This document shows, in pieces, positions 5,505 to 41,215 of a stretch of 64,000 bases of DNA. Below the pieces are notes generated by a model. The model had not been told where the DNA came from. It was given only the letters and a program-made list of their open reading frames with translations, and ran no database searches. Origin of the DNA: Actinomycetota bacterium (GTDB lineage: Bacteria > Actinomycetota > Acidimicrobiia > Acidimicrobiales > CADCSY01); the NCBI GenBank assembly GCA_019347915.1, contig JAHWKL010000001.1:3612-67611 (forward strand), given 5' to 3'. The first letter of the stretch is position 1. Every line of letters begins with the position of its first letter. The translations under genes and the position numbers were made by a program.

Positions 5505-5652
5505 CGTGTGGGACACCAGATATCGGCCGCCCCGAATGCCGTTAGCCCAGCGTGGCTTGGCACGCCCTAACGCGTCTGGAGCGGGGGCGGCAGGGTCCCG
5601 AAGCCTGCCCCTGGTCGTTACCGGGCGCGAGGTACGTGGCGAAGTAGGGCGG
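5505..5652 (+). repeat. dispersed intergenic repeat, copy B1
   Basis: Aligns by eye with 9890-10047. Shared block: CTGGAGCGGGG(G)CGGCAGG..TCCCGAA.CCTGCCC...(G/A)TTACC..GCGCGAGGTA.GTG.CGAAGT.GGG. Contains the hairpin ggcagg/cctgcc. Confidence 0.6.
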
Positions 5653-7721: not shown

Positions 7722-7969
7722 GTTATCGACCAGGGTACATATGTTCGAGCCCGTGGCGCCGTCAACGTCTCGTCAGTTCCGCGGCCGCCACCGCCTCAAG
7801 CACCCGGACTCTGCGTGAGCTCCCGGGGCAGACGGCACGGTGGGGCCACCGGAGCGTCCATCCGCCCCCGTTGACACTCGGGGTCTTCGACGTGGTCACC
7901 GTCCCGACGCCCCTGTCGGCCGGCGGAAGGACCGTCCGTCCTCATGGGCATCGCTCAATGCGGGCGAGT

Positions 7970-8003
7970 GTTACCTCGCGCTGCCGACGTGCCGAAGTCG
8001 GGG
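7970..8003 (+). repeat. partial copy (D) of the repeat-family 3' module
   Basis: GTTACCTCGCGCTGCCGACGTGCCGAAGTCGGGG matches GTTACCGGGCGCAGCGCTGGTGCCGAAGTCGGGCG of copies A1/A2. Confidence 0.4.
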
Positions 8004-8283
8004 GCGCCGCCTAAGCGCTAAGACGCCAAAGGTCCGTGGGCCATCGCCCCGCCGTCGCACCAGCGCGTGCATGCAGTCGCGGCGGGGGTGTAGCAGTTGC
8101 GGCTCATTTGAATCGGTGGCGGGGACCAGGCCAGCACCGGGATACAAGCCCCAAGACCCGCCCAAGCCGTGCCCCAATTGTGAAGGGTGCCGTTCGTGCT
8201 GGCGAAGCGCTGGGGCCCCTCGCCATTCAAGCACCGCAGTGTTCTCCGGTCACGGAGAGCTGAGGCGGGTAGCGTCCAATCTC

Positions 8284-8427: not shown

Positions 8428-8603
8428 CCTGCGCACAATCCGCACGCCCGGCGGTCAGCGAAAGGCGAGCACCTCGGCACGACATCACTCCGCTTCCCGA
8501 CCGCCAACCGTGATCGACCTCGTCCGTTGAGTCGTGGGCGCCCGAACACCGGCGCAGCTGGCCGGGCTTCCCTCAGGAGTCCGTTCGGTCAGGAGCCTCC
8601 GGA

Positions 8604-8645
8604 GGTTCCCGCGTGTTCTCGTGCGCAGCGCTGGTGCCGAAGTCG
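8604..8645 (+). repeat. partial copy (E) of the repeat-family 3' module
   Basis: GGTTCCCGCGTGTTCTCGTGCGCAGCGCTGGTGCCGAAGTCG aligns with the 3' part of A1/A2. Confidence 0.45.
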
Positions 8646-8654
8646 TGCGCGTGA

Positions 8655-8686
8655 CGGGCCGGAGCTGCAACGGGCCGGAGCTGTAA
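8655..8686 (+). repeat. 16-nt tandem duplication
   Basis: CGGGCCGGAGCTGCAA followed directly by CGGGCCGGAGCTGTAA. Confidence 0.7.
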
Positions 8687-9024
8687 CGGCGCCATGCCCC
8701 CGAATGGCGCGTAAAAAGCAACTCTGTGTGCCCCGGCGGCGTCCTTCACCGCCACGTGACACTGCGTCAGCTCAGCGGTGCTGACGGCGGCTTCCCTCTC
8801 CACCGCCACGTCGAGCAGCTCAGCACCACGCCCCTTCGTGCTCACCGACGGCAGCTCCGAGGCCTTGGCCGGCAAGGGGGGTGCCCTCGCCTGACAACCA
8901 CCGGAGACCAGCTGCTCGCCCACAAGGAATACTGCTGTCCGTGGACGGGAAGATCTTATGTCCGCGCGGGAGGAACTCCTGCCGCCCCGTTGACAGCTTC
9001 GTCGACGGTAGACAAGGAGGACCC

Positions 9025-9495
9025 GTGGCAGAATGTCAGATCCACGTAGACGCACCGCGCGAGGCCGTCTTCGACGTGCTCCTCGACCCGACCAGCTTCG
9101 CGATTTGGGTGGTCGGCTCGAAGCACATCCGCGGCGTGGACGCGGAGTGGCCGCAGCCGGGCTCGAAGCTATACCACATCGTCGGATGGGGGCCGTTCGA
9201 GGATCACGACGACACTGAGGTGCTCGAGGTCGAACCGCCTTACCGGTTTCGAATCGAGGCCCGAGCGTGGCCGTTCGGCACAGCGGAGGTGGACCTCACG
9301 CTGCAGCCGGACGCCGGCGGCACCGAACTCCGCATGCGCGAGACACCCCGGGATGGTCCCGCGGCGCGCTTCCACAACCCCGCAATGGAGCTCGCCCTAC
9401 GCGCCCGTAACATGTGGTCGCTGCGGCGGTTGGCCCGCTGGGCCGAAGAGTGCTACCGCGGCACCCCCGGGCATCTGCCGGAGCCAGCGCGGTGA
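9025..9495 (+). CDS. SRPBCC (polyketide cyclase/dehydrase-like) family protein
   Basis: GTG 9025 follows AAGGAGGA and is in frame with ORF 8881..9495. VAECQIHVDAPREAVFDVLLDP...YRFRIEARAWPFGTAEVDLTLQP is a typical SRPBCC pattern. Confidence 0.75.
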   Translation: MAECQIHVDAPREAVFDVLLDPTSFAIWVVGSKHIRGVDAEWPQPGSKLYHIVGWGPFEDHDDTEVLEVEPPYRFRIEARAWPFGTAEVDLTLQPDAGGTELRMRETPRDGPAARFHNPAMELALRARNMWSLRRLARWAEECYRGTPGHLPEPAR

Positions 9496-9706
9496 CCGAG
9501 CACGCGAGGGCAACCGCCATCGCAAGAACCTGACTTTCCCAGCCTGTCGTCTTAGGGCCGCGAAGCGTGGTTGGCCGCGAAACGAAGTAGTCGCCCTCTT
9601 CGAGGCACGCCGCCGACCCTCCATACCATCGCCGGTCACCCCGTAGTGCGCCAACGTCTTCGGATCTGCGGGAAACCCTCACCTACGTTTCCCGACCGCT
9701 TCCCTG

Positions 9707-9853
9707 TGGGAGCTCCCGGTCCTCGGCGAGATCGCTGCGCCCTCGGCCGTGGTGATCCGACCCGACGGGCACGTCAGCTGGGCAGGAGATCCAACGGACC
9801 CAGAGCTGCCTCGAGCACTTGCCACCTGGTTCGGAGCGGCTACTCCGGCTTGA
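9707..9853 (+). pseudogene. orphan 3' fragment of a Rox-like FAD monooxygenase
   Basis: WELPVLGEIAAPSAVVIRPDGHVSWAGDPTDPELPRALATWFGAATPA-stop is about 88% nt-identical by hand alignment to the last ~150 nt of the intact gene at 39746..41215. Nothing homologous lies upstream of 9707. Confidence 0.75.
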
Positions 9854-9889
9854 GAACCCGGACGGCCGAGCGCCATCACGTCCATCACC

Positions 9890-10047
9890 TGTGTGCCGCA
9901 GTGGGGCACACAGATCAGGCGCCCCATAATTGCGGCGCCCGACACCCCCGAGGCCCGCGATATCGGCGCTTCTGGAGCGGGGCGGCAGGGGCTCCCGAAC
10001 CTGCCCGTCGTCATTACCCCGCGCGAGGTAGGTGCCGAAGTCGGGTG
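9890..10047 (+). repeat. dispersed intergenic repeat, copy B2
   Basis: See B1. Starts with an 8-bp hairpin tgtgtgcc/ggcacaca, has a second hairpin ggcgcc/ggcgcc, and ends with GCGCGAGGTAGGTGCCGAAGTCGGGTG. Confidence 0.6.
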
Positions 10048-10208
10048 TTGCACGACGATGCCGAGCTGCACGACGGTCGCTACAGGTCTTCGTGCGTCGC
10101 ATGGTCTGGAGGGACGTCGTCGCCAGCGGAGGCTGCGGTGAGCCGGGATTCGCCCTCGGTCGGAACCAAGCGTCGACGGGTGCTGACCGTCCCCACGTGG
10201 CCGGGAAC

Positions 10209-10997
10209 CTAGCGGCGAAGGAGGGGCTTCTTGATGTAGTCGACCGAAACCGAGGTAGGGGGTTGGTCGAGATTGGCCTCAGCGCGGCGTCGGCTGACGA
10301 CGCGGACGTAGCCCAGGTAGCGACCGCCATCGGCCTCCAGGGCCTCGATCTCCACGCGGTTGTCGGGGGACGCTGTCCGTTGCCAGTCGAGCCACACGCG
10401 CCAGCCCTCGAACATGGTGTCGGCCACCTCTACGTCCACCGCCCCGCTTCTCGACCAGTGGTGGCGCCACCACTGAGCGGAGTGCAGGCAGCACATGGCC
10501 GGCTCCCACCACTGCTGGAGATGCTCGGGCACCGGCCCGTCGATCTCCTGGGTCAGCCCGGCCCCGGCGATCCCGATTGGACCACCCACCTTGACGAACC
10601 GGGTGAGGTAGCTCAGATAAAGGTCATCTGTCCCGTAGTAGGGGAAGGAGTCGATGCTCACGATGGCGTCGAAGAACCCGGTGGCGAACGGTAGTGAGCG
10701 GGCGTCGACGCACAGCGGGAACACGGCGTCGTCGACACCGGTGTCACGCAGCCGCTGGAGCCTCTCGTCGGCGCTGAACCACAGGTCGGCGGCCCAGACC
10801 TGCACACCGAACTCCCGACGGAGAAAGACCGACGACGCCCCTCGCCCGCATCCGAGATCCAGCACGCGCATGCCGGCCCGCAGTTGCATCGCCTCGGCCA
10901 GCCATTCCGTCAGCCACAGCGAGTTGGCCCCGCCGCTCATGCCGGCCAGCACCCACTCCGGCGCGTACGCCGTCGAGCGCGGGAATCGCTCATTCAT
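10209..10997 (-). CDS. class I SAM-dependent methyltransferase
   Basis: Motif I VLDLGCGRGASS and post-I/II ...FDAIVSIDSFPYYG. 262 aa. Confidence 0.85.
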   Translation of the reverse strand: MNERFPRSTAYAPEWVLAGMSGGANSLWLTEWLAEAMQLRAGMRVLDLGCGRGASSVFLRREFGVQVWAADLWFSADERLQRLRDTGVDDAVFPLCVDARSLPFATGFFDAIVSIDSFPYYGTDDLYLSYLTRFVKVGGPIGIAGAGLTQEIDGPVPEHLQQWWEPAMCCLHSAQWWRHHWSRSGAVDVEVADTMFEGWRVWLDWQRTASPDNRVEIEALEADGGRYLGYVRVVSRRRAEANLDQPPTSVSVDYIKKPLLRR

Positions 10998-11359
10998 TTA
11001 TCAACCGGTCGTCTCGAGTCATCCTGCGCTCCTGTGCCGGCGAGGTGGCGTCGGGCGACCTCAGGTCGCCGGAAGTCTCCCACGGCATCGAGCGACCCTT
11101 ACCGGCATCACATCGGCGACAGGTGCTCACCCGTTGTCGGGCTGCAGTGAGGTTGACTCGGTGGCATGTCGAGGGAGGAACTGCGCAGACGAAACTTGTG
11201 GTCGAGTCACGCCTCACTTGACTCTCAGTGTCACCGGACGGTGTGCCGCCCCCCGGGAGAGCTGGCCCCCGTCCGTTAGCGACCGCCGGCGCGCGCGGAA
11301 GCCGACAACGACACTGCGTGCCACGACCTCCGGCCGTATGCCTTGCGCGAAGGATGGCC

Positions 11360-12835
11360 TCAGGGTACAGGCGGAGCCGGGCCCTCGTGATCAGCTGCGG
11401 ATGCAAGCCAGGCGACTCCGGGATCGGGATCCCCCTTGGGCGCCGACCACCGCGCAACCTCATGGCCGTCGGGCCGGACGAGCACAGCACCCGTGCGGCG
11501 CCCCAAGTCCAGCGCAGCGGCGGCCTGGGGTTCGGTGACTACCACCTCCACCGGAGCTGTAAAGCCAGTCTGTCCCGCCACGTCGGTCCACCGGGCGTCG
11601 TCGGTCGCCGCGAACAAGGTGAGACCGTCGCCGATGAGGTCGAGGGTCGAGACCGGTTGGCCAGAGCGGGCCAGCCAGCAGTGGACGAGGCGGTCGTCAA
11701 GGTCCCAGGGGAGCGCCTCGTCGGTGGTGCGTCGGGCGCCACCGGGCGAGCCGGCTCGGCCCACGTTGTGGAGCCCGATCGGACGCCGCTCATCCTCGTA
11801 GGTGTCCAGTAGCTCGGCAGGTGCCCAGCCCCTGAGCACCCACGCCAGCTTCCATCCGAGGTCGAAGGCGTCCTGGATCCCGGTGTTCATGCCGGTGCCG
11901 CCCCGGTGCGTCATGCGGTGGGCGGCGTCGCCGATCAGGAAGCCGCGGTCCCTGCGGTAACGCTGGGCGATCTGGGCTGCGAAGGTGAAGCTGCTGCGCC
12001 GCTCGACGGTGACGTCGAGTCGAGTTACTCCCACCGCAGTTTCGATCATCGCGATGAGGTCAGCTTCGGAGAGATCGTCCATGCCGGGCTCGTCGGCCGG
12101 CCGCTCCCGAGACAGCCCCCAGCGGTCCTCCCGGCCCCGGCGGGCAAGGACGCTGCCGTCCACATCTGGATGCTTTAGGACGTATAGAGCGTGACGCCGC
12201 TTCCCAACGACAGCGTCCAGTGCAGCAAGGAACTCCACGCGCTCGTAGAGGCCGAGGTCATCGGGGCCTTCCATCGCGACGCCAAGCTCGCGACGCACGG
12301 CGCTGTGTGCGCCGTCGGCGGCGACGACGTACTCCGCCTCCAGCTGCTGCCGCTCGCCGGACGCCCGGTCAACCATAGTGGCTCGGACACCGGCCTCATC
12401 CTGTTCGAGCGCCACCAACTGGGTGTTGAACTGCACGGTGGCCGACGGCAAGCCCTGGAGGCAGGCCAGCAGAAGCGGTTCATGGTGGGACTGCGGCGTC
12501 CATGCGGGTCGAGCCGGACTGACCCTTCTCGCCTCCTTGTCTGACGGGTAGCCGAGCGGCATCACCATGCCCTCGTTCGACGCCAAGGTCGGCGTGGCCA
12601 GCGCGGTGGGCTCGACGTCGGCGGCGCCGGCACGCACCGCCTCCTCGAGTCCGAAGCGGCGCATGAGCTCCATGCCACGGGTGCTGATGACCAGTGCCCG
12701 CGAGAGCGTCGAACCTCCCTCGCGCTGCTCGACGACCACTACGTCGACCCCATACTGGGCCAGGGTGATGCCAGCGACGAGCCCGCAGGGTCCCGCGCCG
12801 ACGACGAGTACGTCCACGTGCTGGCTGTCCTTCAA
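11360..12835 (-). CDS. FAD-dependent aromatic-ring monooxygenase (PheA/TfdB-like)
   Basis: DVLVVGAGPCGL dinucleotide fold, DG.HSAVR and GDAAHRMTHRGGTGMNTGIQDAFDLGWKL motifs. 491 aa. Confidence 0.85.
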   Translation of the reverse strand: MKDSQHVDVLVVGAGPCGLVAGITLAQYGVDVVVVEQREGGSTLSRALVISTRGMELMRRFGLEEAVRAGAADVEPTALATPTLASNEGMVMPLGYPSDKEARRVSPARPAWTPQSHHEPLLLACLQGLPSATVQFNTQLVALEQDEAGVRATMVDRASGERQQLEAEYVVAADGAHSAVRRELGVAMEGPDDLGLYERVEFLAALDAVVGKRRHALYVLKHPDVDGSVLARRGREDRWGLSRERPADEPGMDDLSEADLIAMIETAVGVTRLDVTVERRSSFTFAAQIAQRYRRDRGFLIGDAAHRMTHRGGTGMNTGIQDAFDLGWKLAWVLRGWAPAELLDTYEDERRPIGLHNVGRAGSPGGARRTTDEALPWDLDDRLVHCWLARSGQPVSTLDLIGDGLTLFAATDDARWTDVAGQTGFTAPVEVVVTEPQAAAALDLGRRTGAVLVRPDGHEVARWSAPKGDPDPGVAWLASAADHEGPAPPVP

Positions 12836-12971
12836 GGCTCACATGCTCGCGCATCCTGGCGGCTGCCCACTCCGACTGGAAACTGCATCGGGTGCCGCAA
12901 GGCATCTCAGAACGACCCACCACCGAAAGGGCTGCTGTCGCCCTTGCCGGGTTGTGACGCACCTGCGGGCG

Positions 12972-13079
12972 CCCGGTATCCGGCGGTTGCGTGCGCCTGG
13001 GCCGCACGAGTTCGCTCCCCGGTCGGGTGCCACGGGTTCCGAGGGTTACCGGGCACAGCGCTGGTGCCGAAGTCGGGCG
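12972..13079 (+). repeat. dispersed intergenic repeat, copy A1
   Basis: 108 nt differing at 2 positions from 18356-18463. Contains the hairpin cgtgcg-cctgggc-cgcacg and the 3' module GGTTACCGGGC.CAGCGCTGGTGCCGAAGTCGGGCG. Confidence 0.85.
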
Positions 13080-13262
13080 ATTGCGTCGGGCGGATTGCGT
13101 GCCTGGACACGTCCGGCTCGGCAGGAATTGGATCGCTCGCTAGCCGGCCAGGCGGGTCGACGTCGACTATCTGGCGCTCCTCCACGTTGTCGTCCAAGCT
13201 GTGGCGTCGCCAGCCCGTCGAGGGCAATCTCTGCCCAGAGCTCCCACCGGCCGAGGAGGGGA

Positions 13263-13918
13263 ATGGACTACGTCGACGTGGCAGGCCTGCGCATCGGGTT
13301 CCGGCGCAGAGGCGCCGGGACGCCGCTCGTTCTTCTTCACGGAGCGGTGAGCGACAGCCGGGTCTGGCGCGTCGAGCTCGAGTCTTTCGCCGACGCCTTT
13401 ACGGTGGTGGCCTGGGACGCCCCCGGCTGCGGCGGTTCGGCGGACCCCCCGTCGGACTTCCGGATGGGTGACTTCGCCGACGCTCTGGCGGAACTCCTCG
13501 ATGCGCTCGACTTGGGACCCGCCCACGTTCTCGGCCACTCCTGGGGCTCGACCGCTCGCTCTCGAGTTGTACCTACGGCAATCCGTCGGCGGTGCGCAGT
13601 CTCGTCCTCATGCCTGCGGAGCGGGCGCAGGAGTTGGCTTCCATCATGCGCGACAGCCGTCCCGTCGGCACGCGGACGATGGCCCTGGCCCTCGCCGAGG
13701 CCGATCTGCGCGCCGCTCTGCGGAACATCGGGGTGCCGACTCTCGTGGTATGCGGGGAGGCCGACGAGCGGTCTCCGTTGAGCATCGGCCGCGAACTCCA
13801 CTCAGCGATCCCACGTTCGGCGCTGGCCGTGCTCAAGGGTCTCGGCCACGAGTGCTACATGGAGTCCGCCGACACCTTCGGCGCCGAGGTGCGCCGGTTC
13901 TTGCTCGCACAGTCGTGA
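13263..13918 (+). pseudogene. alpha/beta-fold hydrolase disrupted by frameshift(s) around 13550-13590
   Basis: MDYVDVAGLRIGFRRRGAGTPLVLLHGAVSDSRVW...GHSWGST in one frame, LALELYLRQ in a second, and SAVRSLVLM...VPTLVVCGEADERSPL...LKGLGHECYMESADTFGAEVRRFL in a third (ORF 13592..13918). Nucleophile elbow GHSWG and the C-terminal His region are both present. Confidence 0.65.
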
Positions 13919-14102
13919 GCGGATGACGCCGGACATGTCGCAGGAGCGCCTGGTCGCTACCTCGCTGTCTGCCTAGGGCGACTTCGGCCGCTGAGCGCTC
14001 TTGGCCTGGAAGGTACTCGGCTGGTCGATGGCAGCGATGGTGGAGCGTCGTTTCCACCCGCCGCAACGGTGCCGTAGTGTGCGGGGCTGAGGCGTTCAGC
14101 CC

Positions 14103-15719
14103 TCAGCTCGAACGCCCTCGTCGGCTCATGGCCGCGACCAGTAGGAACGCGCCGAAGACCGCGACCCCGGCGGCCATCCCCAGGGCGACGCGGATCAAGG
14201 AGGAGGTCCCAGCCTCCAGCGTTTCGAACTGTACGGCGGCGCTGTAGACGTCCTGCCCCTCGGTGGTGGCGACCTCGCCCCTGGTGTCGTCCCATCCGAT
14301 CACCGTGTAGGCGTCGGTGGCGACCAAACCCGGAGGCTGGCGGATGTCGGCGTTGCCGTACCAGACGCCGCTTCGACGCTCGATGGACCGGTCGGTGACG
14401 CGGATGTTCCCGGACCAGGTGTCCCCGTTGTCGCTCGAGGACGCCAGGTACACATCGTTGATGAAGCCCCCGACGGTGGCATCGTTGCGAAAGTCCCACC
14501 AGGCCACGTCGACGCGGCCGTGGGGAGCGACGATGAGGTCGGGGTGGTATTGGCCGACGAGAGCGTCGGCCGGGTCGTCGCTGAGCCGCGTGGGCTCGTT
14601 CCAGGTCACCCCGCCGTCGGTCGACCGCTCATGGTAGATGTCGTTGACCCACTGGATGCCCTGGGGTGTCTCGGCTTCGTACACGAGGTGCAACGTGCCC
14701 TGCGGACCACCAGCGGGCGACCACTGCAGAGCTGGGTACCGGTAGGTCTCGGTCGCCGGGCTCAGCTCGACCACCGTGAAGGTTCGGCCGCCGTCCCGGG
14801 AGGTGGAGAGGAACGCGGCCGTGTCGTCCATCTGCGGGCCGGGACCGAACCGGGCGTTCCACACCGCGTACAGCGTGCCGTCCCGGTCGAGCGTCAAGTC
14901 CGGCCAGTAGTAGAGGACCTCACTGGCCGGTGGGACCTCGTCGAGGTCGGCGGCCTCGGCCAGCCGGCGCCGACTGTCGTCGTCCTCGAAGTACCCCGCC
15001 GTGAGGTCTATCGGCTCGGAGAAGGTGACGCCTCCATCCGACGAGGACGCCACGAGCGGCAGTTGCCGACCGTCGCGATAGGTCACCTTCCAACCCACGT
15101 ACACGATGTCGGTCGGGCCTGAGGTTGAGTCGACCACGAGGCTGGATACGGGACGGTTGTTCTCCTGTTCGTCGCCCGGGCGGCCACGGGCGTCCCGGAT
15201 GACCGTCGTCTCCCAGCTGTCACCGAAGTCTGCGGAACGGGCCAACACCGGGCTCACGTTGCCCCGCCACCCGCCACCAGGGCCGATGGGCCACTCGCTC
15301 TGGGTGTCCTGGATGTCCCACCCGGCGTAGGCGTAGTAAAGAGTGCCGTCGCCGCCGAAGGCGGTGACGGCCTGGGTGGGGCCGGTCTCGGTCTGGAAGC
15401 AGAAGGGATAGCCCTCGGCCACGGGGTTGGTGTCGGGGTCTTCCCACGAACGCCCGGCGTCTCGGGACCGAAGCAGGTTGCAGGTCCGAGACCGGATCTC
15501 GGCGACGGCGGCCACGATCCGGTCGGGATCCCTCGGATCCCTCGCCATGACCGGTGAGGAGTAGGTGCGGCTCGGGTTCGGGTCGGCGTCTGTCACATGG
15601 ACGGCGGCCAGCACGCGAGCCTCCTCGGGGGCTCCAAGCGAGGAAGAGCCACCGAGTGACGTGAGGGTGAAGCCGAAAACCAGCGCCGCTCCAGCCTTGA
15701 CGACGCCCTGAGCTCTCAC
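14103..15719 (-). CDS. BNR/Asp-box repeat (sialidase-fold) protein with C-terminal TM anchor
   Basis: Six SxDxGxTW-type boxes: SRDAGRSW, SADFGDSW, SSDGGVTF, SRDGGRTF, STDGGVTW, SSDNGDTW. C-terminal helix is VALGMAAGVAVFGAFLLVAAM. GTG 15719 was chosen because the upstream 200 codons of ORF 14103..16340 are Arg/Pro-rich and overlap a better gene in another frame. GTGA overlaps the upstream stop. Confidence 0.8.
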   Translation of the reverse strand: MRAQGVVKAGAALVFGFTLTSLGGSSSLGAPEEARVLAAVHVTDADPNPSRTYSSPVMARDPRDPDRIVAAVAEIRSRTCNLLRSRDAGRSWEDPDTNPVAEGYPFCFQTETGPTQAVTAFGGDGTLYYAYAGWDIQDTQSEWPIGPGGGWRGNVSPVLARSADFGDSWETTVIRDARGRPGDEQENNRPVSSLVVDSTSGPTDIVYVGWKVTYRDGRQLPLVASSSDGGVTFSEPIDLTAGYFEDDDSRRRLAEAADLDEVPPASEVLYYWPDLTLDRDGTLYAVWNARFGPGPQMDDTAAFLSTSRDGGRTFTVVELSPATETYRYPALQWSPAGGPQGTLHLVYEAETPQGIQWVNDIYHERSTDGGVTWNEPTRLSDDPADALVGQYHPDLIVAPHGRVDVAWWDFRNDATVGGFINDVYLASSSDNGDTWSGNIRVTDRSIERRSGVWYGNADIRQPPGLVATDAYTVIGWDDTRGEVATTEGQDVYSAAVQFETLEAGTSSLIRVALGMAAGVAVFGAFLLVAAMSRRGRSS

Positions 15720-16333
15720 CTCGCCCCCTGCGCGGAAGCTCGGCGGCGACTGGAACTGAGGTAGGCCGTCGTGACCGCGCCGAGGAAGACGGCGGTGGCC
15801 AACGCGACCATCACGGTGATGGCGAGCGAGCCGTCCCCCCGGACGGCGAAGCGACTGGGGCGGGCCTCCACCATGAGAGGTGCCTCCTGGTTCTGGGACA
15901 CGCCCGCGCCCTGGATGGTGAGGGCCGCCCGTCCCGGGAGCCGGGTGGGGGCGCCGTTGGAGTCCTGCTGTACGGCGTAGAGGAGCGTTCGGCCAGGCGG
16001 GGCGTCGGAGGGAATGACCACGTCGCCGCTGATGATGTCTTCGTCGCTCGGCTGGAGCTCCGCCAGGACCGGACCGTCTAGGGCCCCTAGGTGGATGAAG
16101 GCGGTGTCGGTGTAGGAGAACCCCCGAACCGTGACGGAGTCCCCAGGAGAGACTTCGGCGGCACTGACATCGAGGATGGAGAAGTTGTGGCGTGCCTCGG
16201 CTACCGGCGCCGAGACGACAAGGCCAAGCGCCAGACAGAGCGCGGCCACAAGACTGAGTGACGCCTGATGCTTGTGGTGATGTCGTCCGCCCCCTGACTG
16301 CATCGCGGCGCATGGAAGCAGCGGCCTCAGCAC
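15716..16333 (-). CDS. secreted/anchored protein with Ig-like region (start may be the second Met at 16303)
   Basis: Signal-like LSLVAALCLALGLVVSAPVAEA, a beta-rich middle and C-terminal TM AITVMVALATAVFLGAVTTAYL. Translationally coupled to the BNR gene. Confidence 0.65.
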   Translation of the reverse strand: MLRPLLPCAAMQSGGGRHHHKHQASLSLVAALCLALGLVVSAPVAEARHNFSILDVSAAEVSPGDSVTVRGFSYTDTAFIHLGALDGPVLAELQPSDEDIISGDVVIPSDAPPGRTLLYAVQQDSNGAPTRLPGRAALTIQGAGVSQNQEAPLMVEARPSRFAVRGDGSLAITVMVALATAVFLGAVTTAYLSSSRRRASAQGAR

Positions 16334-16714
16334 CTGTCAATAGAGGTTCCCAACACCTACCGGGACGCTAGGAAACCCTCGACTCACCCCCTGGCACCCC
16401 CTCGTTCGTCTACCGCAACGTCGGCGACTTCCCGCTGAGCTGGCACCACTGAGCGCTTCGCCGGGGAGCTGGCCGATGACCCTTGACCCGCAGAGCTTGA
16501 CCGACGTCCTCCCTCCTTCGAGCACGAGCAGGCACCGGGGTGAACCTTGCTTGATAGTGCGAAAGCGCCGACGTTTCCGAACTCTGCCGGCTCATGGAGC
16601 ACGACCGCTCGGTCCCTGTTGCTGTATATGCGCGTTACAGCTATTGAGCCAGCGCGTGACCCCTCGTAACGTCTCAGTCGTAGAGGACAGCGGTGGCAGT
16701 GGGGCGATCGGGCC

Positions 16715-18244
16715 GTGCACCATCGCGAGATGTCGCCGCAAGGGGGGCACGTGGCACTGGGTCTGAAGGCACTGCGACACGAACGGTGGGTTGCGTCCAA
16801 CCAGGAGCGGGGACGAACGCCGCGGAAGAGGAGCGCGCCCGCGGTCGCCTTTGCCGTGGCCCTGATCTCCACCTTGATCACCTTGGCGAGTCCCGCCGAA
16901 GCCAGCCACATCGGTTGCGGAGACGTCATCACCGAGGACACGACCCTCGACAGCGACATCGGGCCCTGCCCCGGCGTTGGAATCATCGTAGGCGCGGACA
17001 ATATTACCGTGAACCTGGGCGGCCACACGGTCATTGGAAATCCGGAGAGTCGCCCTAATCAGGAGATGGTGGGGGAAACCCGCGACCGAGCTGGCGTCCT
17101 GTTGCGCCAGGTCCGTGGCGTTACGGTCACCGACGGCACCGTGTCCGGGTTTGACGCCGGGGTGGCAATCATGGGCGGTGGCGGGAACACCGTCCGCAGG
17201 ATTACCGCACACGACAACGTCAACTACCGACTGGTCACCGGCCAGGAGGCGTCTCCCGACGACGTCGACCGCGACGAGGGGCCCTTCTGTTGGTTCGGTG
17301 ACGGTATCACCCTGTTCAACTCCAGCGGAAACGTTGTCGAGCACAATCGGCTCGTTGCCAACGGACCGTTCTCGGGCGTTTCGCTGGTGGGCGACTCCGA
17401 CGACAACGTTGTCGTTCGCAACGACGTAAGCGACCACGATGTCGTTAACGAAACACCCGACGGTGAGGGCACGATCTGCGGCGGGTTGGGATCGCCCGGT
17501 CAGCCGATGGTCATCGGCCGAACCCTGCAGGACGTCGGCATTCGGATCGAAGGTCCCGGTGCAGGGGACAACTTGGTGGAGGGGAACCGTGTCGTCCGCA
17601 GCGGCCTTGGCGGGGTGTTCGTGCATGGCTACGTGCGCGCTACCGGAGCGAACAACGGCGGCAACGTCATCCGCAAGAACCGTATTTCTGAGACCGGATT
17701 GCGCCACCACGAGGTCGTCGACGTCGTCGACGCTGACCTCGCCTCCGGCATTACCCTGCACCACGCCCAGAGCTCTGCCGTCCACGTGTCGCACGGCAAC
17801 CTGATCGAAGGCAACACCTCTTCGCGGAACTTCGCCGCGGGCATCTACGCAATCGGTCCCTGGCCGAGCGACGCCGTCGACGAGTTCGGCAACACCATCC
17901 GCGACAACGTCACCAACCACAACGCGCTCGGCGGCATCCAGCTCGGGGAGGGCGTTGTCCACACGACGGTGGTCGGCAACCGTGGGCACGGAAACGGCTG
18001 GGACAAGGAGCTGGCTAGGGAGATCACCGAAAACTCTCCGTATGGAAGTTGGGACGCGGTCGACGGGGCCGACAACAACGACGACTGCGGTACCAATGTG
18101 TGGTCACGTAACCGGTTCGGCAGCGTCAATCAAGGCTGCGTGGCAGCCGAGGGCACCGGCTGGGTCGGCGGTCCGGGGAAGTCCGCCGATGCCGAAGGCG
18201 GCGGGGGAGGACCGCTAAGTCGAGGCCTTCCGCAGCGTGACTGA
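16715..18244 (+). CDS. secreted right-handed parallel beta-helix repeat protein (NosD/pectate-lyase-like)
   Basis: Signal AVAFAVALISTLITLASPAEA, then repeated G.N..V.GN.i..N motifs (GNTVRRITAHDN, GNVVEHNRLVANG, DNVVVRNDVSDHD, GNLIEGNTSSRN, GNTIRDNVTNHN). Confidence 0.8.
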   Translation: MHHREMSPQGGHVALGLKALRHERWVASNQERGRTPRKRSAPAVAFAVALISTLITLASPAEASHIGCGDVITEDTTLDSDIGPCPGVGIIVGADNITVNLGGHTVIGNPESRPNQEMVGETRDRAGVLLRQVRGVTVTDGTVSGFDAGVAIMGGGGNTVRRITAHDNVNYRLVTGQEASPDDVDRDEGPFCWFGDGITLFNSSGNVVEHNRLVANGPFSGVSLVGDSDDNVVVRNDVSDHDVVNETPDGEGTICGGLGSPGQPMVIGRTLQDVGIRIEGPGAGDNLVEGNRVVRSGLGGVFVHGYVRATGANNGGNVIRKNRISETGLRHHEVVDVVDADLASGITLHHAQSSAVHVSHGNLIEGNTSSRNFAAGIYAIGPWPSDAVDEFGNTIRDNVTNHNALGGIQLGEGVVHTTVVGNRGHGNGWDKELAREITENSPYGSWDAVDGADNNDDCGTNVWSRNRFGSVNQGCVAAEGTGWVGGPGKSADAEGGGGGPLSRGLPQRD

Positions 18245-18355
18245 TCTTTGACGTCAGCTCAGCTTGGCTAGATGTACAGGACCTCGGCCGAGGGCAGAGA
18301 CTCCTATGACCAGAAGCCGCGAAAGCTGGTCCACTGCGCCACCAGACGGGGTGCA

Positions 18356-18463
18356 CCCGGTAACCGGCGGTTGCGTGCGCCTGGGCCGCACGAGTTCGCT
18401 CCCCGGTCGGGTGCCACGGGTTCCGAGGGTTACCGGGCGCAGCGCTGGTGCCGAAGTCGGGCG
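18356..18463 (+). repeat. dispersed intergenic repeat, copy A2
   Basis: See A1. The 5' arm cccggtaacc (18356-18365) is the exact reverse complement of ggttaccggg (18428-18437). Confidence 0.85.
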
Positions 18464-18636
18464 GTCTTCCGTGTGGCGGGCGTCGCTCCGGCGCACGGGC
18501 GAGTAGCGCGGTCGCGTACAGCAGATCCGGTCAGCCTGGTGCCCCACCTACCCGGCGTACGGAGACAGGCGGGCACCGATCTTTTGGGACGACGTGCTGG
18601 GACAGGGGGCGGCGCAGTTGCCTACCTGAGCCCGCC

Positions 18637-23013: not shown

Positions 23014-23169
23014 CCTCCGGGTCGTGTCCTGTCGGGATTTGGAAGAAGCGAGGGGCCTCTTTCGTGCGGGTGGCTGAAGACTGAAGTAGTCGTTGCCGTT
23101 ACCCGGGATCTCCGGGACCGGCGCGGCCGCCAGTGGCCCGACCGCCGGTTGCACCGCACCGGCACGGCC

Positions 23170-23347
23170 GCCCGGGAACCGGCGGAGCCGGGCGCTTGCA
23201 AGGCCCAATAACGCCGGTCGACCATCCTGCTGCAGGGCCCACTGTCAGCCCCATCTGCTGTCGGTGGCACGTCTTACCGCCGGTCCATGCGAGCAGTGGC
23301 AAAAGGCCCTTGGCGCACCTCGAAGGTCATGGGGATGAGTTGCTGGA
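23170..23347 (+). repeat. dispersed repeat, copy C1 (preceded at 23098-23165 by further short family fragments)
   Basis: About 80% identical by eye to 32968-33141. Shares the 5' module (G)CCCGG.AACCGGCGG with A1/A2, then a C-specific block ...GTCGACCATCCTGCTGCA.GGCCCACTGTCAGCCC.ATCTGCTGTCGG...TCGAAGGTCATGGG.ATGAG.TGCTGGA. Confidence 0.6.
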
Positions 23348-31385: not shown

Positions 31386-31553
31386 TCTGGACCACGTGAG
31401 CCCCGTCGTGCTCGGGTCACGGACACTGGGGGCTCTGTGGGCTCCGCCGCGCGTTCTGGAGCGCCAAGGCCCCGCCGAAGTCGTCGGGCCTGAAACCAAC
31501 TTCGCGCCAGTAGCGACACGTTGGGCGTGCGGCGCGATGTGGCCGCGGCGTCC

Positions 31554-32330
31554 CTACCGGCCGGTAGGTGTGAGCGGGTTCACCAGGCCATGTGCGATGG
31601 CGAAGCGCGTCGCGTCCGAACGACTCGAGACGGCGCACTTCACGTAGATCCGCTCGATGTGGCTCGACGCGGTCTTCGGCGCGATGCCGAGGACGTAGGC
31701 GACCTGCTTCGCTGATGCGCCGGTCGCGATCAGCACCAGGACCTCGACCTCCCGCGGTGTGAGGCCGGCCGGGCCCGATCGCCGGCCCGGCCGGTGGCCG
31801 ACGGCGCCGAGCACGAGCTCTACCGCACCGGGATCAAGACGGCCAACGCGAGCCTCGGCTCGGAGCTTCTGCGCCGCGCCAGATCGCGAGCAGCGCTTCC
31901 CCGACGCTCGAGGAGCCGTCATCGCGTGGTACGCCTCGCCGGCGTCGATGAGCTGGCTGTACGTCGGGGAGAAGTCGACGATCTCACACGGATCGTCACC
32001 AACCACCCATGCGTCATGCCCCGGCGGGATGACTGCCGCATCTCCCGTGCGCACCTCCAGGGCGGCCCCGTCCTCCATCACCACGTGCAGCCGCCCGGAG
32101 ACGATGAACAGCTGGTGCGACGCCCGACAGAGATCAGTGCCGACGATGGGCTTCACGTCGGTCGACCACTTCCACCCCGGCTCCATCACCTCGCGAGTGA
32201 TCGTCGTGTCGCCCACCGATGCGACCGTCAGCTCTTCCTTTCCGACGCGGCGGGTGTCGGTCGGCGTGTCGAGCGCCTTCGCTTCGAACCGCACCCCCCA
32301 ATGATGCTTCGGCGATGGGTCCGCCGGCAC
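31554..32330 (-). CDS. LuxR-family regulator with N-terminal cupin domain
   Basis: C-terminal LTPREVEVLVLIATGASAKQVAYVLGIAPKTASSHIERIYVK. N-terminal beta-barrel-like HQLFIVSGRLHVVMEDG...AAVIPPGHDAWVVG. Confidence 0.8.
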   Translation of the reverse strand: MPADPSPKHHWGVRFEAKALDTPTDTRRVGKEELTVASVGDTTITREVMEPGWKWSTDVKPIVGTDLCRASHQLFIVSGRLHVVMEDGAALEVRTGDAAVIPPGHDAWVVGDDPCEIVDFSPTYSQLIDAGEAYHAMTAPRASGKRCSRSGAAQKLRAEARVGRLDPGAVELVLGAVGHRPGRRSGPAGLTPREVEVLVLIATGASAKQVAYVLGIAPKTASSHIERIYVKCAVSSRSDATRFAIAHGLVNPLTPTGR

Positions 32331-32424
32331 GCCAGCCGTAGGGAGAACACCCGATGACTTGCCTTCTGCGCCGTCCTACGGTTCAACGGTGAGCTCGTCC
32401 GTGCCGGACCTTGAAGGAGGATGC

Positions 32425-32916
32425 ATGAAAACCGAGACCATCGAGGCGACCATCGAAGCCTGGACGACGGACCCGGAAAAGGCGCTGGGCGCTCCGGTCG
32501 TGACCGCCCGCGCCGACGAGAGCCAGGCGGTGATCCAGGCGGGGCCGTTCACCTGGCGGGCCGACCTGCCGCCGGCGCTGGGTGGCACCAACGAGGCGCC
32601 CAGCCCCACCGCGCTGCTCCTCAGCGCGCTTGCCGGCTGTGCCGTCGTTTTCGTGCGGGACACGCTCGCTCCGCAGCTCGGGGTTCGAGTGGACGCCGTC
32701 GAGGCCGCCGTGCGATGTGAGACCGATGGGCGCGGCCTCCTCGGCATCGACGGAGCAGCGCCGGACCTGCGCAACGTCAGCCTCGACGTCACCGTGCAGT
32801 CGCCTGACGGCGACACGGGTGTCAAAAAGATCGCCGAAGTGTGGCAGCAACGGTGCCCGATCTATCTGGCGCTCGTGAGGCCCACCGACGTGGCCGTGCA
32901 GTTCCGCACCGGCTGA
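32425..32916 (+). CDS. OsmC/Ohr family peroxiredoxin-like protein
   Basis: ATG follows GAAGGAGG. GGTNEAPSPTALLLSALAGCAV and C-terminal QQRCPIYLAL. Confidence 0.85.
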   Translation: MKTETIEATIEAWTTDPEKALGAPVVTARADESQAVIQAGPFTWRADLPPALGGTNEAPSPTALLLSALAGCAVVFVRDTLAPQLGVRVDAVEAAVRCETDGRGLLGIDGAAPDLRNVSLDVTVQSPDGDTGVKKIAEVWQQRCPIYLALVRPTDVAVQFRTG

Positions 32917-32967
32917 GGAGTTCCTACCACGGTCTCGCCCCCGACCGCTTCATGGGCTCTGCGTGCC

Positions 32968-33141
32968 GCCCGGTAACCGGCGGAGCCGGGCGCTGGCAAG
33001 CCCGATACCACCCGTCGACCATCCTGCTGCATGGCCCACTGTCAGCCCGATCTGCTGTCGGCACGTCGTGCCGCCGTTCGAGGCGAGCAGTAGCGAAGGG
33101 CTCTCCGCGCACGTCGAAGGTCATGGGAATGAGCTGGTGGA
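32968..33141 (+). repeat. dispersed repeat, copy C2; an A-type 3' module follows at 33218-33257
   Basis: See C1. GGTTCCCGCGCGTTCTGTCGCACGCGTCGCGGGGCGTCGG at 33218-33257 aligns with copy E and the A 3' part. Confidence 0.6.
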
Positions 33142-33462
33142 CGGAGAGCGACCGGTTCTGGTGTTCTCGCGATCTGCCGGTTCGGCGCGACGGTAGGGCC
33201 CAGGGTGTCGTGTGTGCGGTTCCCGCGCGTTCTGTCGCACGCGTCGCGGGGCGTCGGACGGAGTCCAGCCCTGCCCATCATGCGCCGCCATCGGTCCGCG
33301 GCGGTCCTCGCGCCACTGGCGCATCCGCGCCGCCCGCTCCCGGAGTTCACCCGGATTCGTCTCGGTCGTGCCATCGAACTCCATCCTCCCGCAACGAATA
33401 GAGCCTCCAAGGAACCCGGGGCGGTTCACCGCCCAATCACAGGCCCGGACGAGCACTGAACT

Positions 33463-39745: not shown

Positions 39746-41215
39746 ATGACCGAACATGCGGTGGTGATCGCAGGAGGCGGCCCGACGGGGCTGATGTTGG
39801 CGGGCGAGCTGGCGTTGGCGAGGATCGACGTCGTCGTCGTCGAACCACGCACCAGTCAGCATCTCGACGGATCACGAGCCGGGGGCCTTCACTCCCGCAC
39901 CATCGAGGTGCTCGATCAGCGTGGCATCGCGGAACGATTCCTCTCGGCGGGTAAGACGATGCAGGTCCAGGGTTTCTCCGGCATCCCCTTGGACATCAGC
40001 GACTTCCCCACCCGCCACAACTACGGACTGGCACTCTGGCAGAGCCACTTCGAGCCCATCCTGGCTGACTGGGTCGATGAGCTCGGCGTTCCGATCCTGC
40101 GCGGCTGCGAGGTCGTGGGCTTCGCACAGGATGACAGCGGCGTCGATGTCGAGCTGTCCGGGGACACCTCCCTCCGAGCGGAGTATCTCGTCGGCTGCGA
40201 CGGAGGACGCAGCCTGGTCCGCAAGGGAGCCGGCATCGACTTCCGCGGGTTGGATCCCTCGACGAGCTGGATGATCGCCGAGGTCGAGATGGACGAGGAG
40301 CCGGAGTTCGGCTTCCGTCGCGACAGCGTCGGCACCCACGCCCTGGGTCAGAGGGAAGACGGGAAGTCGGTTCGGGTCGTCCTCACCGAACGACACCTCG
40401 ACCACACCGGCGACCCCAGCATGGAGGAGCTTCGCGACGCACTGGTCTCCGTGTACGGGACGGACTACGGGCTTCGGCGCGCCAACTGGATCTCCAGGTT
40501 CACCGACATGACGCGGCAGGCAGCCTCCTACCGCCGAGGCCGCGTCCTGCTGGCCGGGGACGCCGCACACCTGCATCCGCCCCACGGCGGCCAGGGCCTC
40601 AACACCGGCGTGCAGGATGCCGTGAACCTGGGCTGGAAACTGGCCCAGGTCGTCAACAAGACATCACCCGAGAGCCTCCTGGACACCTACCATGCCGAAC
40701 GGCATCCGGTCGGTGCCCGGGTGCTGCACAACACCATGGCGCAAGTCGCGCTCAGCAGTCCCGACGACCGTCACCAGGCCCTCCGCGACACCATGACGGA
40801 ACTGCTGGGCATGGATCAGCCGCGCCGGCGCATCGCCGCCATGCTCTCCGGTCTCGACATCCACTACGACCTCGGAGAGGGACACCCGCTGCTCGGGCGG
40901 CGCATGCCCGACCTCGACGTGCACACCGCCGACGGTCCCACACGCGTGTTCAGCCTGCTGCACGACGCCCGGCCCGTGCTCCTCAACCTCGGTGAACCCG
41001 GCAGCTTCGACATCTCTCCCTGGGCGGATCGAGTCCGGTTGGTCGACGCCAGGCACGATGGTGTGTGGGAGCTCCCGGTCCTGGGCGAGGTCACTGCGCC
41101 CCCGGCCGTGGTGATCCGACCCGACGGGCATGTCGCCTGGGCAGGAGAGCTCGCGGACCCAGAGCTGCCCCGAGCACTTGCGACCTGGTTCGGAGAGGCC
41201 ACTCCGGCTCAGTAG
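39746..41215 (+). CDS. FAD-dependent monooxygenase, rifampin monooxygenase (Rox/RIFMO)-like
   Basis: AVVIAGGGPTGLMLAGELAL, GCDGGRSLVRK, LAGDAAHLHPPHGGQGLNTGVQDAVNLGWKL, LLDTYHAERHPVGARVLHNTMAQVAL, GLDIHYDLGEGHPLLGRRMPDLD. Confidence 0.8.
   Translation: MTEHAVVIAGGGPTGLMLAGELALARIDVVVVEPRTSQHLDGSRAGGLHSRTIEVLDQRGIAERFLSAGKTMQVQGFSGIPLDISDFPTRHNYGLALWQSHFEPILADWVDELGVPILRGCEVVGFAQDDSGVDVELSGDTSLRAEYLVGCDGGRSLVRKGAGIDFRGLDPSTSWMIAEVEMDEEPEFGFRRDSVGTHALGQREDGKSVRVVLTERHLDHTGDPSMEELRDALVSVYGTDYGLRRANWISRFTDMTRQAASYRRGRVLLAGDAAHLHPPHGGQGLNTGVQDAVNLGWKLAQVVNKTSPESLLDTYHAERHPVGARVLHNTMAQVALSSPDDRHQALRDTMTELLGMDQPRRRIAAMLSGLDIHYDLGEGHPLLGRRMPDLDVHTADGPTRVFSLLHDARPVLLNLGEPGSFDISPWADRVRLVDARHDGVWELPVLGEVTAPPAVVIRPDGHVAWAGELADPELPRALATWFGEATPAQ

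Follow-up and report, generated by a model that had tools for sequence, protein, structure and literature searches.

Co-oriented repeats in an accessory locus of an Acidimicrobiales genome as probable recombination sites of an integron-like gene-unit array

Near-identical repeats in an accessory locus

The window analyzed here is a 64,000-nt stretch of contig JAHWKL010000001.1 (positions 3,612 to 67,611, forward strand) from an Acidimicrobiales genome of the Actinomycetota (assembly GCA_019347915.1, 86% complete, labeled G000 below). It carries two near-identical intergenic repeats, A and B, separated by 5.4 kb of accessory genes. Integrons are the textbook gene-capture system, and A and B are probably recombination sites of an integron-like gene-unit array, on which a dedicated Xer-like ("simple") tyrosine recombinase would act. 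This reading draws, through sequence comparison, on the architecture and co-orientation of the sites, the linkage and geometry of an integrase, the exchange of gene units at an invariant GTGCCG, and the accessory status of the locus.

The locus was compared with two genomes of the same genus, G001 and G002. Between 3.2 and 23.1 kb the window had essentially no counterpart in either genome, and the matches that were found were sites and short gene pieces. Collinearity with G002 started at ~42.5 kb, and the 44- to 64-kb part was collinear with both genomes at ~90% identity. The array locus is accessory.

A first-pass annotation of the window had described two near-identical 108-nt elements with unrelated flanks. 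The comparison confirmed this description: positions 12972-13079 and 18356-18463 aligned without gaps and were identical at 106 of 108 positions, and the flanks on either side were unrelated. All of the subfeatures that it had named were found in both copies, namely the 10-nt 5' arm cccggtaacc (ccggtatcc in copy A), whose reverse complement ggttaccggg follows 62 nt downstream, the 6-bp hairpin cgtgcg-cctgggc-cgcacg, the 8-bp palindrome CAGCGCTG, and the conserved 17-nt tail GGTGCCGAAGTCGGGCG. Copy A lies between divergent genes for an FAD-dependent hydroxylase (−) and an alpha/beta-hydrolase (+), whereas copy B lies between convergent genes for a beta-helix protein (+) and a TetR regulator (−), indicating that the repeat has no fixed relation to its neighbor genes.

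The pair belongs to a larger co-oriented family, on which the first-pass annotation had not remarked. With up to three mismatches allowed, the tail occurred seven times in the window, always on the plus strand, against an expectation of 1.17, and none of 100 shuffled sequences reached seven. The five best tail matches in the 2.7-Mb, 244-contig assembly fell into one locus, inside 10.5 kb of the window's contig. Model R1, a profile built on the 3' part that the copies have in common (alignment A5, 22 copies), detected six strong sites in the window (from 5612, 7965, 8609, 10010, 13039, and 18423) and one weak site (from 14047), all on the plus strand. T2 and T3, two of the strong sites, are diverged full-length copies. 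One strong site was found on the small contig C21 of the same genome, where a second, diverged copy was detected through its 5' module; outside the locus and C21, the G000 assembly gave weak R1 matches only.

Architecture and distribution of the sites

Alignment of the family revealed a universal core in which six hypervariable nucleotides, the spacer, separate a left arm, cGTTACCgGGCGC (GTTACCgGGCGC), from a right arm, sGTGCCGwAsTCGGGCGG. The conserved tail of the pair is this right arm. The palindrome CAGCGCTG covers the spacer AGCGCT plus one adjoining base on each side, from the left and the right arm, respectively. The arms were conserved over at least 11 genomes, whereas the spacer and flanks varied freely. 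An A/B-type subfamily of 15 members from 9 genomes carries in addition, ~75 nt upstream, a left-arm copy in inverted orientation (GCGCCCGGTAAC), then CGGCGG, and has a variable middle part with CACGAGTTCG. This last motif (window positions 13005-13014 and 18389-18398) was kept in 13 of the 15 A/B-type sites across the nine genomes and has no pairing partner. The majority of the other sites consist of the 3' module alone. The likeness of A and B is reasonably attributed to a single site subtype that was copied recently, in agreement with the recent copying that had been proposed for them, and their identity reaches the end of the right arm because both right arms match the family consensus.

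The 5' arm and the 3' arm of the A/B-type sites could form a stem, and when they were aligned in register 64% of the cells paired, compared with 31-40% when the arms were slid against each other. The pairing was no better than that of column shuffles (62%; 69 of 500 reached the observed value), and double changes were found in only three pairs. The arms are therefore sequence-conserved inverted copies and not a stem kept through compensation, as would be expected for protein-binding boxes. Among the three readings offered for the pair in the first-pass annotation (a mobile element, a structured RNA family, and a cluster of protein-binding sites), the last came closest, and the other two were not supported, as discussed below.

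R1 sites were found in 6 of 33 genomes of the family, representing two genera, and in five further carriers (G061-G065), with at least 90 sites listed in the 11 genomes. In BLAST and pattern scans, true members occurred only in metagenome-assembled genomes (MAGs) of Acidimicrobiales/Actinomycetota; a 15-mer scan of public genomes returned nearly all chance matches, and a two-block pattern was effective. Neighboring sites within 12 kb on one contig were co-oriented in 37 of 37 pairs, with a median spacing of 1.6 kb and a cluster at 600-800 bp. G061, the best-assembled carrier, has one array of 11-13 sites (C7:244.6-269.6 kb), another of 6-7 sites (C4:446.8-474.1 kb), and smaller same-strand site pairs.

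Exchange of units at GTGCCG

The two G061 arrays share a 673-nt unit that is 98.7% identical and has different neighbors on both sides. At its upstream site, the left arm and spacer differ between the two loci and identity starts at GTGCCG; at its downstream site, identity spans the left arm, the spacer, and GGTGCCG and ends within the right arm. Each end of the unit is no more than 12 nt away from a site anchor, a distance at which only 0.4% of bases are found. When the larger loci were compared, this unit was the sole common segment that was not explained by the integrase, a recombinase trio, or a second ("type II") repeat, all of which are described in the next section.

Similar junctions were found in other carriers. 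Site X1 on G000 contig C21 and a site on G063 contig C137 were identical at 109 of 110 positions upstream, at 8 of 11 in the right arm, and at 3 of 17 beyond it. The shared upstream stretch includes a truncated fragment of a helix-turn-helix gene (…NIAARLGCHPTTVGKWL; C21 6919-7010) that runs directly into X1, and the fragment together with the site is 99% identical in the G063 contig. Two G062 sites matched at 40 of 40 positions up to GTGCCG and then at 8 of 11 and 11 of 34. In all four mapped junctions the break fell at the invariant GTGCCG, and the spacer stayed with the left arm (4/4). Judged from the assembled sequences, these junctions show that the right arm goes with the downstream unit, whereas the upstream unit keeps the left arm together with the spacer and the part upstream.

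Classical two-strand exchange requires matching spacers. The spacers differ between sites, and all four junctions lie on the same side of the spacer, which suggests a single fixed strand exchange. We consider a model in which the Xer-like integrase would bind the arms, as well as the inverted upstream arm in A/B-type sites, and would exchange strands next to GTGCCG. Units might then leave as circles with one hybrid site and re-insert at another site. One fixed strand exchange, if resolved by replication, would account for the tolerated variable spacers. One-strand exchange resolved by replication is known for integrons (PMC3458562).

An Xer-like integrase linked to the sites

A tyrosine recombinase was found inside each large G061 array, on the strand opposite to the sites. 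The C7 copy is intact (~290-300 aa), and an insertion interrupts the C4 copy. The same integrase, 82-84% identical, lies beside the sites in G063, where its 5' end is a few hundred base pairs from the first site and faces it, a geometry like that of integrons. Altogether, the integrase was located in or next to arrays on the opposite strand on G061 C7 and C4, G063 C161 and C289, and G000 C21. Close homologues (at least 49% identical, E ≤1e-50) were present in G002, G015, G030, G031, and G061-G065, that is, in four of the five other site-carrying genomes of the family and in all five further carriers; no P value is given for this linkage because related genomes are not independent samples. In G000, integrase remnants were the only traces (C21:1813-1962, 90% identical over 50 aa, and C111:1319-1420), and no intact recombinase was found within reach of the window's sites. 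The array in G000 is therefore probably frozen or inert, like a cluster of attC sites lacking an integron integrase (CALIN).

The integrase was next compared with known recombinases. Its best NCBIfam models were XerC, XerD, and XerA at 125-134 bits, far below the cut-offs (133.7 and 132.9 bits for XerC and XerD against 335 and 330), and its best relatives among solved structures were XerD and XerA. The housekeeping Xer proteins are separate genes, ~35% identical to the array integrase. Integron-integrase models (TIGR02249 and PRK15417) matched only the catalytic C-terminus (model positions 237-297), scoring 69.2 bits (cut-off, 265) and 54.9 bits (cut-off, 435), and no integron integrase above the cut-off was found in G000 or G061. 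The IntI insertion has been described as essential to integron function (PMC8138268). The array integrase does not have this IntI-specific insertion and is in keeping with the tyrosine recombinases that Smyshlyaev et al. (PMC8138268) term "simple".

In both G061 arrays and on G000 C21, the last ~20 integrase codons (…RYDRGRGSLDRHATY[IL]V.TFLAGASR*) overlap a related type I element on its other strand; this element combines a 5' module of the A/B type (GGCGCCCGGTAWCCGGCGG) with a long hairpin, whose stem carries compensatory changes (GGCTCGGGCG/CGCCCGAGCC versus GGTGCGGGCG/CGCCCGCACC). At the position of the core, this integrase-proximal element reads AACGTCGaCAC-GAkGTA-GGTGGCGTGGCGATCGAGG, with an equal layout and diverged arms. 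A second element type, the type II site, was found just past the integrase stop in G031, G030, and G002. Its sequence corresponds to a 218-nt direct-repeat pair on G000 contig C33 (94% identical, 6.6 kb apart, at ~17.7 and 24.4 kb; locus L193 2718-2935 and 9363-9577), and each of these repeats embeds an integrase-tail remnant, RAR(Q/*)SLDGHATYIVA. From this geometry a further possibility can be drawn, although we hold it only tentatively and consider it rather doubtful: that the arrays constitute an undescribed gene-capture platform of Acidimicrobiales with an Xer-like enzyme lacking the IntI insertion, a single strand exchange at GTGCCG, and an integrase gene that spans a site, such that each insertion there would replace the C-terminal tail of the enzyme with the minus-strand-encoded tail of the incoming site. 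Such a replacement, if real, would explain the peptide-like P[DE][FY]GT..A.GN conservation of the right arm.

As a separate observation, both G061 integrases (L194 6563-7426 and L196 14220-14581) are out of frame at the same place, over their last ~20 codons. The orthologues in G065, G031, G030, G011, G063, and G015 are in frame; in G061, the two genes may share a frameshift, or the assembly may be in error there.

A trio resembling the recombinase-in-trio (RIT) elements (Van Houdt et al. 2012, PMC3414803) adjoins both G061 arrays. Identical 3.3-kb RIT-like trios of tyrosine recombinases (409, 417, and 671 aa) lie at C7:272.9-275.6 kb and C4:476.6-479.2 kb (L195 and L197), ~3 kb beyond the array ends, inverted relative to the shared flanks and with ~88-nt overlaps that resemble inverted repeats. 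In G000, the integrase remnants are directly adjoined by RIT-like open reading frames (ORFs), at C21:524-1765 and, as a recombinase ORF, from near C111:185. The trio is a separate mobile element with identical copies that are inverted between the arrays, and its proteins are only ~26-28% identical to the array integrase. The trio is a neighbor or disruptor of the arrays and not their enzyme.

Limits of the recombination-site reading and alternative explanations

Several points weigh against the view that A and B are recombination sites of a gene-unit array. The 673-nt unit is the only long unit bounded by sites at both ends, and the remaining junctions are one-sided; recombination is read from the comparison of assembled sequences, and neither a circle nor an empty site was observed. 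Almost all of the sequences are MAGs, in which misassembly at repeats is possible, and R1 scoring covered 150 candidates per genome, so that the site counts are lower bounds. Cargo genes occur on either strand, and the length of some units reaches 3-5 kb, unlike classical integron cassettes. An intact integrase was not found in the 86%-complete G000 assembly. In addition, 2 of the 27 site-less genomes of the family (G011 and G009) have the integrase, which is absent from the other 25, and G024, which has one weak site, has no copy of it.

A and B might instead be attL/attR-type repeats of ordinary integrative islands stacked at a single attachment site, without any cassette platform. The direct repeats do bound multikilobase segments with several genes on both strands, the locus lies within an accessory segment of at least 40 kb, and the genome contains integrase remnants and the C33 repeats with their embedded integrase tails. 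However, many units are ~600-800 bp long, too small for autonomy, a single integrase accompanies arrays of up to ~13 sites, and the 673-nt unit moved alone between the G061 arrays, making this explanation unlikely. It also overlaps mechanistically with the recombination-site reading, since one enzyme and one set of sites would serve in both.

The minus strand of the array core reads P[DE][FY]GT-x2-A-x-GN, with variation that is conservative or synonymous, and its nucleotides are ~75% identical to the integrase codons LD(R)HATY[IL]V, with one codon indel. These features would be consistent with the elements being decayed 3' ends of a minus-strand protein gene, the integrase tail, without a present function. 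No array copy has an upstream ORF for such a peptide, however, and several copies contain stop codons; the peptide-like signal is therefore read as a common origin with the integrase-proximal site and not as present coding. This shared ancestry would be compatible with A and B acting as recombination sites. Arms that are conserved over at least 11 genomes between a spacer and flanks that are free to vary, together with unit exchange exactly at GTGCCG, make decay alone improbable.

We consider it quite improbable that the elements are small structured RNA genes or leaders (small RNAs or riboswitch-like cis-regulators), as had been suggested for the pair. Their intergenic position, predictable stems, and blocks conserved across genera would suit such a function, as would the compensatory changes in the hairpin of the integrase-proximal copies. 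In the Rfam scan, two tRNAs elsewhere in the window were the sole matches at the gathering threshold, and a permissive scan of positions 12800-13300 gave chance-level matches only. Single-sequence fold energies on both strands showed no extra stability over shuffled sequences (z = +0.4 to −1.2), and neither a consensus fold (−5.2 kcal/mol) nor covariation (covariation term +0.2) emerged when RNAalifold was run on the 15 A/B-type members. Copies occur alike in divergent, convergent, and tandem gene settings, and the most conserved part (arm, spacer, and arm) is unpaired. Neither co-orientation regardless of gene direction nor unit boundaries within the element would be expected of RNA genes.

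Least probable of all are selfish repeats resembling miniature inverted-repeat transposable elements (MITEs) or repetitive extragenic palindromes, or ends of insertion sequences or rolling-circle elements, spread by a transposase: although the elements contain inverted repeats, A and B are near-identical, and orphan gene fragments adjoin several copies, the strong 3'-module matches are limited to one locus and C21, no target-site duplications were found at A or B and no terminal inverted repeats bound an insertion, the inverted repeat leaves out the right arm and is therefore internal, the sites are regularly accompanied by a tyrosine recombinase and by no transposase, and 37 of 37 neighboring pairs are co-oriented. 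With the copies confined to one locus and one strand, a dispersed MITE is ruled out, and the MITE-like element proposed in the first-pass annotation is not supported. A diversity-generating retroelement with template and variable repeats was also rejected, as the two differences between A and B are not adenine-specific in either direction and many diverged family copies exist.

Relation to known recombination systems

If A and B are recombination sites, the closest likeness is to sedentary chromosomal integrons and CALINs (PMC4889954, PMC9024848), which also have co-oriented structured sites that are similar within an array and split small accessory units. In both systems the recombinase lies on the opposite strand, at or in the array, exchange occurs at a single fixed point in a conserved motif so that each site is a hybrid of two units, and integrase-less arrays exist; A and B recall the homogeneous attC repeats, such as the Vibrio cholerae repeats (VCRs), of large chromosomal integrons. 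The sites were co-oriented in all 37 neighboring pairs and the units were often ~650-800 bp long, but the cargo lay on both strands and some units held two or three genes. The differences extend to the enzyme, which has no IntI-specific region, and to the sites. Inverted AAC...GTT ends are present in the A/B type, but the break falls at GTGCCG, 18 nt past GTT, in a separate arm-spacer-arm core outside the palindrome, whereas the integron crossover is at G|TT of R'. The 5' half is absent from most sites, many array sites have no palindrome at all, and the 3' end of the integrase gene overlaps a site. In the window itself, six or more sites stand without an intact recombinase nearby; since the sites are not canonical attC sites, its likeness to a CALIN is a functional analogy only. 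In its presumed operation the array resembles sedentary chromosomal integrons and CALINs, but its enzyme lacks the IntI-specific region and its sites are not canonical attC sites.

Xer-dependent modules and integrative mobile elements exploiting Xer (IMEXs), such as the pdif modules of Acinetobacter plasmids and the CTX/TLC-type elements at dif, share with the array an Xer-like enzyme, sites built of an arm, a 6-nt spacer, and an arm, and repeated sites around small gene modules, and one-strand exchange followed by replication is known for some IMEXs. Unlike in those systems, the array recombinase is dedicated, array-linked, and distinct from the housekeeping XerC/D, and the array sites are strictly co-oriented instead of alternating and unrelated to dif in sequence. 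The integrase of mycobacteriophage Brujita (PDB 5vfz; IntBrujita subgroup, PMC8138268) is also a protein of ~300 aa with core-binding and catalytic domains only, from an actinobacterial host, and its attachment site overlaps the 3' end of a gene. The sequence match to it is weak (50.9 bits), however, no phage genes were found at the arrays, and the arrays have many sites and not one attP/attB pair.

IntegronFinder surveys have reported no complete integrons and few CALINs in Actinobacteria, for a reason called unclear (PMC4889954, PMC9024848). Our literature search, which did not cover subscription journals, found no account of such arrays in Acidimicrobiia. If the recombination-site reading is true, an actinobacterial order that is widespread in water and soil has an integron-analogous platform with a different enzyme and site type, and software built around IntI and attC could not be expected to recognize it as an integron. 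It would also be an independent case of cassette systems arising from Xer-type recombinases. The 35-nt core and the ~300-aa enzyme make a directly testable pair, and the sites could serve as a marker for accessory genes in Acidimicrobiales MAGs.

Gene units and further features of the locus

The sites and the genes between them are listed in Table 1. Each unit carries one or a few small accessory genes. Further cargo types in the window and in G061, on either strand, included DUF4395, a GT2 glycosyltransferase, an F420H2-dependent quinone reductase, and many unknowns. The weak site between A and B would divide the 5.4-kb interval into a unit of ~1 kb with the alpha/beta-hydrolase and one of ~4.3 kb with the BNR-repeat and beta-helix proteins. 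The orphan monooxygenase fragment before T3 looks like the truncated cargo of a unit ending at T3; inspection of its left edge for a site remnant revealed none.

Table 1. Positions of the sites and gene units in the window (3' modules and R1 bit scores are given where available)
Feature	Position	Strand	Remarks
Site E0	5505-5652	+	Diverged, GAGGTA-spacer subfamily; 3' module 5612-5652; 36.7 bits; 84% identical to T3
Site T1	7880-8005	+	Upstream part degenerate; 3' module 7965-8005; 35.9 bits
Site T2	8540-8651	+	Diverged, full-length; 3' module 8609-8651; 36.2 bits
T2-T3 unit	8652-9889		SRPBCC (Polyketide_cyc2) gene 8881-9495 (+) and orphan fragment
Orphan monooxygenase 3' fragment	9705-9853	+	90% identical to 41064-41209; 37 nt before T3
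Site T3	9890-10048	+	37 nt past the orphan gene 3' fragment; 3' module 10010-10048; 32.5 bits
T3-A unit	10049-12968		Methyltransferase 10209-10997 (−); FAD-dependent aromatic hydroxylase 11360-12835 (−)
Site A	12969-13080	+	Full-length, type I; 43.3 bits
Site A, 5' module	12969-12986	+	GCGCCCGGTATCCGGCGG
Site A, motif in variable middle	13005-13014	+	CACGAGTTCG
Site A, left arm	13045-13056	+	GTTACCGGGCAC
Site A, spacer	13057-13062	+	AGCGCT
Site A, right arm	13063-13079	+	GGTGCCGAAGTCGGGCG; mapped exchange point GTGCCG 13064-13069
A-B cargo	13081-18352		Alpha/beta-hydrolase ~13.25-13.9 kb (+); BNR-repeat protein 14103-16340 (−); beta-helix/NosD-like protein 16715-18244 (+)
Weak site between A and B	14047-14079	+	Degenerate; 17.1 bits, E 3.5e-4
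Site B	18353-18464	+	Architecture as in A; 47.2 bits
Site B, 5' module	18353-18370	+	
Site B, left arm	18429-18440	+	
Site B, spacer	18441-18446	+	
Site B, right arm	18447-18463	+	GTGCCG 18448-18453

The gene upstream of T1 was considered as a candidate integrase and rejected, as it encodes a DinB-type polymerase. Directly after T2, a near-perfect 16-nt tandem duplication (gggccggagctg.aac) was observed at 8655-8686. The alpha/beta-hydrolase after A (13250-13926) is spread over two overlapping plus-strand ORFs (12567-13781 and 13468-13926) and may be frameshifted or decayed.

A further repeat pair, 23167-23347 and 32965-33141 (85% identical), opens with the A/B 5' module GCCCGG.AACCGGCGG and then diverges, and the R1-type core is absent from it. 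Positions 33140-33183, a 44-nt segment after the second copy, show a 93% match to the DNA just past a tyrosine recombinase stop on contig C42. An islet at 31530-32992, within an otherwise strain-specific segment, is 92% identical to G002 contig C31 and ends at the 5' module of the copy at 32965.
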